Shown one piece after another: positions 55,501 through 61,500 of a DNA stretch of 64,000 bases (position 1 is the stretch's first letter; the number at the start of each line of letters is the position of its first letter). The position numbers are program-made. The DNA is taken from positions 21,647-85,646 of the forward strand of contig JBFWZG010000001.1 of the NCBI GenBank assembly GCA_050185515.1. The letters run 5' to 3'. The DNA is from Reyranellaceae bacterium (GTDB taxonomy: Bacteria; Pseudomonadota; Alphaproteobacteria; Reyranellales; JAQSWP01).

Positions 55501-58500
55501 TCAGGCCGAGCACGCTCAGCAGGCCGACATAGCCGCTGCGCGGCAGGCCGAGCAGGCGCCCGGCTTCCAGCGCCACGTAGCCGAAGATTCCGAGCCAGAT
55601 GAACCGGCGCAGCCATATGTCGAGATAGGCCGCGGTGCCGTCCGACAGCGGCAGCACGCGCAACGCCGGGTCGTGCGGCTGCAATGCCAGCCGGCACAGC
55701 AGGATCAGCGCCTGGCTGACGACCGCGGCATTGGCGAGCGCGATGGCGATCAGCCGCACGTCGGGAGCGGGATCGAGGAACGGCAGAATGCCATAGGCCG
55801 CCGCGGCGAAAGCGGCGACGGGCAGCGCGTCGAGGATCAGCGCCAGCAGCCCGGCGCCCAGACGCCAGACCACGCCGCCCTGGCGATGCGTCAGCGTACG
55901 GCGCACGCGCGACAGCAGGAGGTGGACCAGAAACTGCGCCAGCGCGCCGAGCGCCAGCATGGCGGCAACGCGCCACAATCCCTCGAGGATGCGATCGCGC
56001 TTGGCGCCGTCGTTCAAGGCATTGCGGATCCAGTCGCCGGCGCCACGGGCGTCGAGCAGCGCGTCGCCGATCTCGCGCACCGCCGTGGAAACCTGGGCGA
56101 CGCTGTTCGACAGGGTGGCGAGGACGACTTCGCCCAGTCCCGGATCTTCGGCAGGCGCCGTGCGCTGCGCCGCGATCAACGCCTTGAGCTGCTCGACCAG
56201 TTTGGTCCGCTCCGGCTCGCTCTCCAGCGTCTTCACAAGCCGTTCCAGTTCCGCCGCCGACACCGTGGCCGGCGGCGCCTCGGCAGCCGGCGCCTGCGCC
56301 CATGCCATGCCGGCAAATCCGATGCAGATCGCGCTGACGATCAGAACCGCCAGCAGCCGTCGCAGCGTCTTGTCGAATAGGATGGAAATCGGCGCAGCTG
56401 GGGCGCAGGCTGCGGTGTATTTCATGGACCAAACCCTTGTCATTGTTTACAAAAGAACAGGCTACCGTGGGCGCGTCAATGTCCCTAACGATCTACCACA
56501 ACCCGCGTTGCAGCAAATCGCGGCAGACCCTGGCGTTGCTGCGCGAGCGGGGCGTCGAACCGCGCATCGTCGAGTATCTGCAGGACCCGCCTTCGCTGGC
56601 GACCCTGAAGGCGCTGGCGGCGATGCTGGGCGGACCGCGCGCCATGCTGCGCAAGGGCGAAAGCGTCTATGCCGAGCTGGGGCTGGGCGATGCGAGCCTG
56701 CCCCCGGCCAGGCTGCTGGAGGCGATGCGGGCGCATCCGATCCTGATCGAGCGGCCGATCGTCACCGACGGACAGCGCGCGGCGATCGGGCGGCCGCCCG
56801 AAGCGGTGCTCGCGCTGCTCTGACATGAAGGGCGATCGCGAACGTCTGCTGCGCTCGCTCCGTCTGTGGTCCGGCGTCGTCCTTTTCGTCTACGCGACAT
56901 CCCATCTGGCCAACCATGCCGTCGGCCTCGTGTCGCTGCGCGCCATGGAGCGCGCGCTCGACGTTTTTTCGGCGGTGTGGACCGGCGCTGCCGGCACGGC
57001 GCTGCTCTACGGTTCCCTTGTGGTCCATATCGCGCTGGTGCTGTGGTCGTTCTATCGTCGCCGGTCCTTGCAGCTGACCGCAACGGAGTGGCTACAGCTG
57101 GTCCTGGGCGCGCTGATCCTGCCGCTGGGCGTGGTTCATGTCGTCGGCACCGGCGTGGCCCGCCTCGTCGCCGGCATCGATCCCAGCTATTCCTACGTGC
57201 TGTTCTCGATCTGGAGCGACGGCTGGCCCGGCGTGCTGCAGCAACTCGGTCTGGTTCTCGTCGTCTGGGTCCATGGCTGCATCGGGCTGCACATGCTGTG
57301 GCGGCTGAAAGCACGCTACGCGCGATGGCGTCCGCTGGCCTTCGCCGTGGCGATCCTGCTGCCCGCACTGGCGCTGGTCGCCTTCTTCCAGCGCGGCGCC
57401 GAAGTGCTGGAGCTGGCGCGCCAGCCGAACTGGGTGACGGCGATGTTCCAGGCCCTGCCCGTCCCCGACCAGCAGACCGTCGCGGGGCTGCTGGCCGCCA
57501 TCGACTGGAGTCTGGTCGGCATCGCGGCATTGCTGGCCGGCGTCTTCGCCGCTCGCCAGGCGCGCAACGCCATCGAACGGCGCGGCGCGCTGGTGCGCCT
57601 GCATTATCCCAACCAGCGCCTGGCGCAGGGACCGGCGGGACCCAGCGTGCTGGAGTTCAGCCGCTTCGCCGGCATTCCCCATGCCTCGGTCTGCGGCGGT
57701 CGCGGCCGCTGCTCGACCTGCCGCGTCCGCATCGGTCGCGGGCTGGACCGGCTGCCGCCGCGCGCAGCCGCCGAGCAGCGCGTGCTGGCCCGCGTCGGAG
57801 CGCCGGAGAACGTCCGGCTGGCCTGCCAGCTGCATCCGCCGGCCGGCGAATACGACGTGACGCCCTTGCTCGCCGCGGGTGCCGTGGCGCAGGAAGCCCT
57901 GTCGCAGGCCGCGCATCATCACGGCCAGGAGCGCGAGATCGCCGTGCTGTTCGCCGACATACGCGGCTTCACCTCGCTGGCCGAACACCGCCTGCCCTAC
58001 GACACCGTTTTCGTGCTCAACCGCTATTTCCGGGCCGTCGGCGAAGCGATCGAGGATGCCGGCGGCCATGTCGACAAGTTCATCGGCGACGGCGTCATGG
58101 CGCTGTTCGGGCTCAAGGGCGACGCGCCCACAGCCTGCCGCAAGGCGCTCGACGCCGCCCGCCGCATGGCGCTGGCGATCGATGCGCTGAACGAGAGCCT
58201 GTCGGGCGATCTCGACGCACCACTGCGCATCGGCATCGGCCTGCATGCCGGGATCGCCATCGTCGGCGAGATGGGCTATGGCGCGACGCGATCGCTTACC
58301 GCCATTGGCGACAGCGTCAATACCGCCAGCCGGCTCGAGCCGATGACCAAGCAGTTCTCCTGCGAACTGGTGGTGTCGGACGATCTGGCGATCCTTGCCG
58401 GCGTCGACCTGTCGGAATGGCCGGCGCATGACATCGAGGTGCGCGGCCGCACCACCGCCCTGACCGTGCGGGCGGTCGAGGATGCGGCGATGCTGCCGGC

Positions 58501-61500
58501 GCCGCCGGAGTCCGGCAGCGTACGGCGCTGATTTTTTGGCCAACGGGATTAGTCCCGAATGGGCGGTGTCTCGTATCAGGGAATGGCGTATTCTCCCTTC
58601 GTCCGCTCGCACAGGAGGTCCTCATGCGCGCTCTGCGTCACTTCGGCTTCGCCGCCGCCATCGCCATCGGGCTGGGGGCGGGACTGGCCGCACCTTCTAT
58701 GGCAATGGGTACCTCCGATCCCGCGCCCGCCGCCAAGCCGAAGAACGCCGATTTCGAGGCCGGCAAGGCCGCCGTCGCCAAGGAGGACTGGCCGGCCGCC
58801 ATCGCGGCCCTGAAGAGGGCGACCGCCGCCGAGCCCAACAATCCCGAAGCGCACAATCTGCTGGGCTATGCCACGCGCAAGTCCGGCGATCCGCGCGGCT
58901 CGCTGGCGCACTACCAGCAGGCCCTCGCCCTCGATCCCAAGCATATCGGTGCGCATGAATATATCGGCGAGGCCTATCTGATGCTGAACGATCTCGCCAA
59001 GGCCGAGGAGCATCTCGCCAAACTCGGCGATCTGTGCACTTTCGGCTGCAAGGAGGAACGCGCGCTGAAGGCGGCGATCGAGGCCTACAAGAAGAAGCCG
59101 AAACAGAGCTGATCGTCGCTCGCCGAAGGCCGCCTCGTCGTTTTCCGTGAGAACGCCGCCTGTTCTGCGCGCGGCGAGATTGCCCGCTTTTCGCTTGGCG
59201 GATCGAGGTGCCGGGGCGGGTTTGCTTCCGGCGGGCCAGTTTGTATCCTGCCGCCGGAGCGAAACCCCAGGACGGATAATGAATTTCGATTTTTCCGACG
59301 ACCAGAGAATGCTGCAGGAGCAGGTGCGCCGGTTCCTGGCCGACAAGTGCCCGCCCAAAACGGTGCGCCGCGTGCTGGAAGGCGACGAGCCTTACGCCGA
59401 GGAAGTGTGGCGAGGCCTGGTCGAGATGGGGCTGACGGGCGCGGCGATCCCCGAGGAATTCGGCGGGCTGGGCCTGGGCGCGCTGGAGCTGTGCGTGGTG
59501 GCGGAAGAACTCGGCCGCGCCTGCGCGCCGGTGCCGTTCTCCTCGTCGGTCTATCTCGCCAGCGAAGCGATCCGCAAGGCCGGTTCGCCGGCGCAGAAGA
59601 GGAAATACCTGCCGCAGCTGGCCGCCGGCGAAACGATCGGTACCATCGCCGTGTCGGAAGGACCTACCGCGGCCAGCCCGCGCACGGTGCGGGCGAAATT
59701 CTCCAAGGGCGCGCTGAGCGGCACCAAGAACCCGGTGCCGGACGGCGAAGCGGCCTCGCTCGCCATCGTGCTGGTCAATACCGGCGGCGAGGGCGAACGC
59801 GCATTGTCGCTGGCGCTGGTCGATCTGAAGGCGAAGGGCGTCAGTCGCCGGCCGGTCCACACCATCGATCCCGCGCGCAAGCATGCCGAAATCGTCTTCG
59901 ACGGCGCGCCGGCCGAATTGCTGGGTGGCGAGGGCGACGGCTGGAGCATCCTGCAGGACGTCTATGACGGCGCCGCCGTGCTGTTCGCCTTCGAGCAGAT
60001 CGGCGGTTCGGAAGCGGCCCTCGTCATGGCGCGCGACTACGCGCTGCAACGCTACGCCTTCGGCCGCCAGATCGGCTCATACCAGGCGATCAAGCACAAG
60101 CTGGCCGACGTGTACGTCAAGAAGGAGCTGGCGCGTTCCAACGCCTATTACGGGGCCATGATGCTGGCCGACGGCGGCGCCGACCTGCCGATCGCGGCCG
60201 CCGCCTCGCGCATCGCCGCCACCGAGGCCTACGATTTCGCCGCCGCCGAATGCATCCAGACCCATGGCGGCATCGGTTTCACCTGGGAAGCCGACACGCA
60301 GTTCCACTATCGCCGCTCGCGCGTGCTGGCGCTGGCCATCGGCGGGCCGGGCGTGTGGAAAGAGAAGCTGGTGCGCCGCCTCGAACAGCAGAACGCGGCC
60401 TGACGGGAAGGAAACGGCACCATGGATTTCAACGACACGCCCGAAGAAGCCGCCTTCCGCAAGGAGGTTCGCGCCTGGCTCGACGCCAACGCCAAGCGCA
60501 AGGACGCGGACCGCAAGGCCTCGCGCGCGCGCATGGAGGAGGTCGACGCCCTCCCCCGGGCGCGCGAATGGCAGGCGAAGAAAGCCAGGGCCGGCTATGC
60601 CCGCATCACCTGGCCGAAGGAATATGGCGGCATGGGCGGCACGCCGATCCAGCAGGTGATCTACAGCCAGGAGGAAGACGACTACCTGGTGCCGACCGGC
60701 TTCTTCGAAATCGGTCTGGGCATGTGCATCCCGACAGTGATGGCCTATGCCAAGCCCGAAGTGCTGCAGCGCTACGTCAAGCCCGCGCTCTACGGCGAGG
60801 AGATCTGGTGCCAGCTCTTTTCCGAGCCGGCCGCGGGTTCAGATGTCGCCGGCATCCGCACCCGCGCCGAGCGCGACGGCGACGACTGGATCGTCAACGG
60901 CCAGAAGGTCTGGACCTCGGGCGCGCACTACTGCGACTACGGCATCGTCATCACCCGCACCGATCCCAACGTTCCCAAGCACCAGGGCCTGACCATGTTC
61001 TATCTGGACATGAAGAGCCCCGGCGTCGAGGTGCGGCCGATCAGGCAGATTTCGGGCACCGCCAATTTCAACGAGGTGTTCTTCACCAACGTGCGCATCC
61101 CCGACCGCCAGCGCCTGGGCAAGGTCGGCGACGGCTGGAAAGTGGCGCTGACCACGCTGATGAACGAGCGCCTGGCCGTCGGCACGCGTCAGGGCATGGA
61201 TTTCGACGAGTTGCTCGAACTGGCTCGCGAGACCGAGCTGGAGGACGGCCCGGCGATCCGCAACGGCGCCGTGCGGGCGAAAATCGCCGACTGGTACGTC
61301 CAGAGCCAGGGCCTGAAATACACCACCTTCCGCACCCTGACGGCGCTGTCGAAGGGCCAGACCCCCGGCCCCGAGTCCTCGATCGGCAAGATCGTGGCGG
61401 CGCCCAAGATGCAGGCCACCGGCGCCTTCGGCATGGAGCTGATGGGTCAGGCCGGCATTCTCGACCGCGACGTGCCCGGCGCCGGCGCCTACCAGGCGCA

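Follow-up and report, generated by a model that had tools for sequence, protein, structure and literature searches.

A probable CyaC-type redox-regulated adenylate cyclase with predicted heme b and [2Fe-2S] cofactors, encoded directly behind a YfgD-like arsC gene in a Reyranellaceae bacterium

That an adenylate cyclase can sense the quinone pool through a fused membrane anchor with heme and Fe-S cofactors has been known since 2019 from Sinorhizobium meliloti CyaC (SMc01818). Two papers (PMC10463352, PMC9552081), with reference to Wissig et al. 2019 (Mol Microbiol 112:16), describe CyaC as an adenylate cyclase of class III in which a hexahelical membrane domain holds two heme B and which also carries a [2Fe-2S] cluster. 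They also state that the anchor resembles the cytochrome b of succinate dehydrogenase and fumarate reductase (PMC10463352), that heme B is oxidized or reduced by ubiquinone and the cyclase is activated once it has been oxidized by quinones (PMC10463352, PMC9552081), and that CyaC makes cAMP and is redox-regulated via quinones both in Escherichia coli membranes and as purified protein (PMC10463352). Here we describe a gene for a 568-aa protein of this architecture in a 64,000-nt stretch of DNA from a Reyranellaceae bacterium (GenBank assembly GCA_050185515.1, contig JBFWZG010000001.1, positions 21,647 to 85,646 of the forward strand), the whole of which we call the window. By its sequence and by analogy with the S. 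meliloti protein, it is very probably an adenylate cyclase of class IIIb and of the CyaC type, regulated by quinone or redox state and equipped with the heme b and [2Fe-2S] cofactors. An initial annotation of the window had proposed that electron-transfer cofactors gate cyclic nucleotide synthesis in response to quinone or membrane redox state, which is what experiments on the archetype, S. meliloti CyaC, have shown (PMC10463352, PMC9552081); it had also held that the biochemical role of the architecture was not worked out, and this was mistaken, as that role was published for S. meliloti CyaC in 2019 (PMC10463352).

Each of the features that we looked for as typical of CyaC was found in the predicted window protein: a six-transmembrane (6TM) anchor, a tetra-histidine set, an arrangement like that in succinate:quinone oxidoreductase and quinol:fumarate reductase (SQR/QFR), a [2Fe-2S] domain, and a competent-looking cyclase. 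Hydropathy and the AlphaFold model place the six TM helices at about residues 14–36, 54–77, 88–116, 134–161, 163–190, and 216–244, and the charges of the anchor loops fit an N-in/C-in topology. The initial annotation had seen 5–6 hydrophobic helices with His in or beside them; there are six, and the His motifs that it quoted could be located among the anchor His at positions 27, 31, 68, 105, 150, and 156. A search with residues 1–260 against 1.84 billion representatives (E up to 1e-3) gave matches in 1885 clusters at 50% identity, whose complete members are about 545–630 aa long. When the query was aligned with the best 150 of these 1885 clusters (151 sequences), H27, H68, and H150 were present in 151/151 and H105 in 150/151, the exception being a gap. 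These four His, one each on TM1–TM4, are also invariant in alignments A1, A3, and A4, whereas H31 (139/151) and H156 (90/151) are not invariant. The CyaC anchor is itself said, in the 2019 study, to have a tetra-histidine signature, the mutation of which reportedly abolishes both heme and activity.

An AlphaFold2 model of residues 1–255, made with 53 homologues, consists of six long helices (pLDDT 89.1, pTM 0.85). When this model was compared with the PDB by Foldseek, ranks 1 and 2 were both taken by the cytochrome b of Wolinella succinogenes QFR (1e7p_C and 2bs3_C; prob 1.00, TM-score 0.52, 224–230 aligned columns), and the C subunit of Desulfovibrio gigas QFR (5xmj_C) was also matched with a TM-score of 0.40–0.45, while the remaining matches lie at TMq ≤0.33 and prob ≤0.23. 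We rejected the cytochrome b561 and STEAP/FRD heme folds for the anchor, STEAP2 being found at rank 44 with a TMq of 0.33 and a prob of 0.12. The earlier suggestion of a membrane module like those that bind b-type heme is upheld as a domain reading by the invariant His and the match to the QFR cytochrome b fold.

The candidate heme ligands were placed by comparison with Wolinella FrdC, the sequence of which was checked against 1qlb_C before alignment. In a forced global profile alignment, which is not significant in itself, H27, H68, H105, and H150 fall on FrdC H44, H93, H143, and H182, respectively, and an HGxxGL motif after the fourth His is paired as well. In FrdC, we take H44 and H143 to be the ligands of the distal heme and H93 and H182 those of the proximal heme. 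Because of the His register with FrdC, the N-in topology, and these FrdC pairs, H27 and H105 are predicted to ligate a distal (periplasmic-side) heme b and H68 and H150 a proximal (cytoplasmic-side) heme b, and the proximal heme would then be predicted to face the cytoplasmic Fer2 domain. The only local hhalign match between the anchor and FrdC gave a further observation: helix I of FrdC (H44) is paired with the loop and TM3 (H105) rather than with TM1. The stretches before TM1 and TM3 also appear similar on visual inspection, with R-L-x-S-G-L in one and E-x-x-Q-L-x-L-G-L in the other, and this would fit an anchor in which a two-helix, two-His hairpin is duplicated internally (aa 8–80 vs 83–165; window 56825–57300), such a repeat being the probable cause of the local match between TM3 and helix I.

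The same ligand pattern bears on what the hemes would sense. Nucleotide cyclases often carry heme-based gas sensors, such as those of H-NOX/soluble guanylate cyclase and the globin-coupled sensors, and in the 2019 study CyaC activity in membranes reportedly responded to O2 as well, so the hemes could instead detect a gas (O2, NO, CO) or sense oxidants directly, and not the quinone pool. However, a four-helix bundle with four invariant His implies that each of two b hemes is six-coordinate with bis-His ligation, as in QFR/SQR, and this geometry suits electron transfer and not ligand binding. CyaC is moreover described as being oxidized and reduced directly by ubiquinone analogues (PMC10463352). 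We consider a gas or oxidant sensor quite improbable here.

The part of the protein that follows the anchor matches Pfam Fer2 at residues 270–338 with 25.0 bits against a cutoff of 21. Its Cys spacing is C290-X5-C296-X2-C299-X34-C334, exactly the ferredoxin-type set of the initial annotation, which had named a failure of these Cys to match ferredoxin ligands as a result that would count against it. When this was checked, C290, C296, C299, and C334 were each paired with one of the cluster Cys in human FDX2 (2y5c); for 3zyy_X, the alignment takes in the first three Cys only, with the fourth one column off. All four Cys are invariant in alignments A1 and A3.

The C-terminal part matches Pfam Guanylate_cyc at residues 369–544 (E 2.3e-16), and all six catalytic residues, D378/K418/D422/T492/N499/R503, are in place and do not vary among 53 close homologues, as fits the complete class III cyclase domain that had been noted earlier. 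The nearest solved cyclase domains are the cyanobacterial class IIIb structures 2w01 and 1wc0 (E 1e-21), and the hexad spacings are equal to those of Spirulina CyaC. A Lys/Thr substrate pair is the pattern of class IIIb adenylate cyclases. Because the substrate-specifying pair of the window protein is Lys418/Thr492, its sequence favors ATP over GTP for the substrate, and we rejected a guanylate cyclase reading on the same ground. Of the cAMP or cGMP output first proposed, the cAMP part is favored and the cGMP part is unlikely. The domain search that had been suggested likewise gave a divided answer: Fer2 and Guanylate_cyc were found, while no Pfam or NCBIfam family was matched over residues 1–260, so the N-terminal TM module has no family assignment.

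Among 58 full-length representatives of the family surveyed for catalytic variants, 19 have the canonical DKDTNR set, as the window protein does. Gln stands at the K418 position in 20/58 (DQDTNR, DQDTHR, DQDSNR, and one DQDGNR), and Ser, Asn, or Glu in others. About 10 of the 58 have a degenerate hexad and yet retain all four His and all four Cys (e.g., P0178, P0181, P0191, P0205, P0235, P0243, P0252, and P0263); from their sequences these resemble pseudo-cyclases in which the redox module is intact. Their retention of both ligand sets argues that the redox module is under selection on its own, and on this basis the TM-heme/[2Fe-2S] module could primarily be a small quinol:acceptor electron-transfer enzyme or an electron conduit to which the cyclase is accessory and sometimes vestigial. 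For the window protein this seems to us highly improbable, since its six catalytic residues are invariant both in it and in its clade, S. meliloti CyaC produces cAMP (PMC10463352), and no acceptor or partner gene is conserved beside the cyclase gene in the 80 loci whose neighborhoods are described below.

Several results weigh against reading the window protein as a CyaC-type cyclase with a QFR-like anchor. Its likeness to SMc01818 lies in the published features of that protein; no Sinorhizobium locus was among the best 80 of at least 578 matching loci, nor was SMc01818 among the 120 matches listed when the search was seeded with a Rhizobiaceae-labeled locus (L020). The Foldseek E-values for QFR cytochrome b are weak (0.03–0.06), a profile search with the TM module against all PDB sequences returned 0 matches, and Pfam Sdh_cyt is found below threshold in 4 of 16 members scanned (E up to 10). 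Alignment of the anchor with FrdC by hhalign gives a probability of 10% in local and 0.4% in global mode. As sequence methods show nothing significant, the relationship between the anchor and FrdC therefore rests on the fold and the ligand pattern. Finally, the full-length model has a pTM of only 0.49, and the linker between Fer2 and the cyclase (about residues 350–365) is disordered.

With these points taken into account, we still hold the protein to be very probably of the CyaC type, and its mechanism would be as follows. The protein would act as a homodimer with one 6TM anchor per subunit, TM1–4 of which would form a four-helix bundle like that of type-B SQR/QFR di-heme cytochrome b, with H27 and H105 ligating the distal and H68 and H150 the proximal heme b. 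After TM6, there would be a cytoplasmic [2Fe-2S] domain of the adrenodoxin/NqrF-like kind, with the proximal heme on one side of it and the catalytic domain on the other. Membrane ubiquinone or ubiquinol would oxidize or reduce the hemes, and probably also the cluster, and the redox state would be relayed to the cyclase dimer, the oxidized state activating cAMP synthesis by analogy with S. meliloti CyaC. That the cofactors are bound, that the protein reacts with quinones, which way regulation runs, and that it is specific for adenylate rather than guanylate cyclization are all inferred by homology or analogy. The coordinates of the genes, domains, and predicted ligands are collected in Table 1.

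Table 1. Positions in the window of the arsC-cyaC genes, of the predicted domains and heme ligands of the cyclase, and of features directly downstream
Feature	Window position	Strand	Reading and basis
arsC/yfgD-like gene, 114 aa	56479..56823	+	glutaredoxin-type ArsC-family thiol reductase, predicted; catalytic Cys11 in HNPRCSKSR
cyaC-like gene, 568 aa	56825..58531	+	6TM di-heme-b-type anchor, [2Fe-2S] ferredoxin domain, and class IIIb adenylate cyclase (predicted)
N-terminal membrane module, aa 1-255	56825..57589	+	six TM helices; AlphaFold2 model, His conservation, Foldseek
His codons	H27 56903-56905; H68 57026-57028; H105 57137-57139; H150 57272-57274	+	predicted axial heme b ligands
[2Fe-2S] ferredoxin-like domain, aa 256-345	57590..57859	+	Pfam Fer2; C290 (57692-57694), C296, C299, C334
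class III cyclase catalytic domain, aa 367-553	57923..58483	+	Pfam Guanylate_cyc; hexad D378, K418, D422, T492, N499, R503
terminator-like hairpin and T-run	58516..58540	+	consensus match; overlaps cyaC stop codon
small TPR protein, 162 aa	58624..59112	+	TPR Pfam matches; N-terminal hydrophobic stretch, C-terminal CTFGC

The stop codon of arsC (TGA, 56821–56823) is followed by a single c and then by the ATG of the cyclase gene at 56825, so the coordinates of the open reading frames (ORFs) confirm the earlier observation of a 568-aa ORF starting 1 nt after the stop of an ArsC-family gene. For arsC, we favor the ATG at 56479 over the TTG at 56437 as the start, as alignments to solved relatives begin at its M1. 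The GC content at third codon positions is 0.84 for the arsC ORF and 0.86 for the cyclase ORF, which is typical of real genes in this window of 67% GC. A protein identical to the cyclase (100%) is deposited in NCBI from a Reyranellaceae metagenome-assembled genome, with no more of a label than "adenylate/guanylate cyclase domain-containing protein." The hairpin at the cyclase stop codon has a 6-bp stem with 4 GC pairs followed by ATTTTTTGG (T6), and because it overlaps the stop codon, the sequence suggests that it is the likely 3′ end of an arsC-cyaC transcription unit separate from the TPR gene. The region holds 2 terminator-like sites vs 1.5 expected from shuffled sequences, which is no enrichment. 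Upstream of arsC, a scan for sigma-70 promoters gave no match, the sigma-70 consensus being uninformative for a high-GC alphaproteobacterium.

The protein encoded by the upstream gene matches the Pfam family ArsC (PF03960, E 1.4e-20) and passes TIGR00014, the model for glutaredoxin-type ArsC, with 140.6 bits vs a cutoff of 106.05, while it fails TIGR01617 ("arsC_related," the Spx/MgsR family) with 35.6 bits vs a cutoff of 75.05; a YffB-specific model was not found among its NCBIfam matches. Its best solved relatives are the YfgD-like 3f0i (E 1e-31) and 3rdw (E 2e-30), followed by R773 ArsC, 1i9d (E 1e-23), and its HNPRCSKSR, MLRK, IERPIV, and IGRPPE motifs align with 3f0i and 3rdw. Three of its Arg correspond to the triad of R773 ArsC. 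By sequence, then, the gene product belongs with the YfgD-like members of the glutaredoxin-type ArsC family and is not YffB, and the YffB-like label that it had first been given has to be replaced. We saw no arsenic-resistance transporter and no arsH within about 5 kb of arsC-cyaC, and in this neighborhood the ArsC gene is therefore not part of a classical ars operon.

The genes within these about 5 kb encode an MscS-family channel, recX, the TPR protein, two acyl-CoA dehydrogenases, ABM, and NIPSNAP. The MscS-family channel (776 aa, 54113–56443, minus strand; best NCBIfam match PRK11465, "mechanosensitive channel protein," with MscK matched weakly) is divergent from arsC, and because the two starts are about 35 nt apart, the promoters of both genes must overlap coding sequence. 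An MscS-family gene stands between recX and arsC only in the window and in one other locus, L016; in the other Reyranella loci recX is directly upstream of arsC. About 4 kb past the end of the cyclase gene (62572–63260, plus strand) lies a gene for an ArsR/HTH_20-type regulator of ~230 aa with a long C-terminal extension.

The initial annotation had proposed that the thiol protein is a co-expressed redox partner for the cyclase, and we weighed this in the form of a dedicated thiol partner that reduces or repairs a Cys or the Fe-S cluster of the cyclase or relays thiol, arsenate, or oxidant status to it, so that the two genes together would bring thiol redox into cyclic nucleotide signaling. 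We surveyed the neighborhoods of the best 80 of at least 578 matching genome loci that encode the TM-Fer2 module. In 12/80 loci, all of the Reyranella/Reyranellaceae type and closest to the window, arsC is directly upstream of the cyclase gene, and in 11 of these 12 the stop-to-start distance is 1–10 nt. The short junction, 1 nt in the window, has been kept at ArsC identities of 51–75% and cyclase identities of 51–73%, and we take arsC-cyaC for this reason to be a maintained and probably translationally coupled operon in Reyranellaceae. This coupling speaks for a partner role, as does the place of ArsC outside a classical ars operon in the about 5 kb scanned. In the other 68/80 loci, however, which come from other Alphaproteobacteria, Betaproteobacteria, Rokubacteria/Methylomirabilota, and others, arsC is absent beside the cyclase gene, and the neighbors of S. 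meliloti cyaC are genes for a TetR regulator (CycR) and a LysR regulator (PMC10463352). Because of both, the ArsC gene does not, by these comparisons, belong to the conserved core of the CyaC-type system, and a partner role would be at most lineage-specific. Redox regulation of CyaC via quinones is described for E. coli membranes and for the purified protein, with no such partner present (PMC10463352).

Nor does the cyclase protein offer an obvious thiol target, since its only conserved Cys other than the cluster ligands, C152 and C438, are both common across the wider family, and none of its Cys proved to be specific to the arsC-linked clade. A simpler reading of the gene order is that recX-arsC-cyaC-tpr is an inherited local arrangement. 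Taken together, these results lead us away from ArsC as a general redox partner, and we think a dedicated partner role unlikely. Clustering of neighbors across the loci gave no universally conserved neighbor, and it is noisy at high GC content because of spurious antisense ORFs.

A homologue of the TPR protein (~160 aa) adjoins the cyclase gene on either strand in 26/80 loci (L001–L008, L010, L012, L013, L015, L016, L018, L021–L023, L037, L038, L044, L050, L059, L061, L068, L071, and L080), which is more loci than for arsC. The TPR gene shares the strand of the cyclase gene in the Reyranella clade, and in many other Alphaproteobacteria the two genes converge. The hydrophobic N-terminal stretch of the TPR protein reads like a signal peptide, and in the two sequences compared the C terminus has a CxFGC motif (CTFGC in the window and CVFGC in L001). 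Either an inherited gene order or a partner role in the periplasm may lie behind the adjacency.

At least 8000 database proteins have the Fer2+cyclase architecture, and with the 1885 anchor clusters at 50% identity this places the architecture far beyond chance. The family is very large, its members are labeled only as adenylate/guanylate cyclase domain-containing proteins, and its anchor lacks a Pfam family; the signature of four His and four Cys could support a proper annotation of the CyaC-type family. What is new here is minor beside what was already known: the lineage-specific coupling to arsC, the frequent TPR neighbor, the K418Q and degenerate variants, and the absence of a Pfam model for the anchor. 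The variants with intact redox modules suggest an unstudied diversification of output. The arsC(yfgD-like)-cyaC operon in Reyranellaceae gives a handle on the function of YfgD-type ArsC paralogues. An unlikely further reading is that the Reyranellaceae YfgD-like ArsC has been recruited as a partner of CyaC, where it would keep the [2Fe-2S] cluster or Cys152/Cys438 reduced or feed in glutathione, arsenate, or oxidant status. If so, cAMP output would integrate the redox states of the quinone pool and of the cytoplasmic thiols, and this would be a first physiological role for the widespread, uncharacterized YfgD-type ArsC paralogues. Elsewhere in the window (11752–13998, minus strand), a 418-aa ORF looks like bc1 cytochrome b and an adjacent 320-aa ORF could be cytochrome c1, as judged from N-terminal sequence only; if they are, genes for a quinol-oxidizing respiratory complex could be present in the same 64 kb.

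Compared with known systems, the YfgD-like proteins 3f0i (Vibrio) and 3rdw (Yersinia) share about 55% identity with the window ArsC over the aligned region and have the HNP(R/K)CSKSR loop in common with it, whereas the window gene is tightly coupled to a cyclase gene outside any ars operon. The window cyclase has its catalytic fold in common with Spirulina CyaC (1wc0), Synechocystis Cya2 (2w01), and Pseudomonas CyaB (3r5g), and these class IIIb examples also share with it the two metal Asp, the Lys/Thr pair, the Asn/Arg transition-state pair, and equal spacings; the solved class IIIb cyclases have other N-terminal sensors, and none has a heme/Fe-S membrane anchor. With the adrenodoxin/ISC-type and NqrF-type ferredoxins (FDX2, 2y5c; Vibrio NqrF, 8a1t), the Fer2 domain shares the Pfam Fer2 fold and the alignment of the cluster Cys, but the similarity is weak (E 1e-5 to 1e-3), and the window domain is embedded between anchor and cyclase, whereas those ferredoxins are free-standing or joined to an FAD/NADH-binding domain. 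Wolinella FrdC (1qlb, 1e7p, 2bs3) and the window anchor are alike in their helical bundle, in four His on four helices, and in quinone as the redox partner, proposed in the case of the window protein; FrdC has 5 TM helices and is a subunit of a flavoprotein/Fe-S complex without a signaling fusion, while the window anchor has 6 TM helices and is fused to the 2Fe-2S and cyclase domains. S. meliloti CyaC differs from the window protein in its genomic setting, cycR (TetR) and a LysR gene (PMC10463352) as against the arsC/yfgD-like gene upstream and the TPR gene downstream. Both proteins are alphaproteobacterial and have an equal domain order of 6TM anchor, [2Fe-2S] domain, and class III cyclase, both anchors appear related to SQR/QFR di-heme cytochrome b, and the mechanism that we propose for the window protein is the same as that of CyaC.

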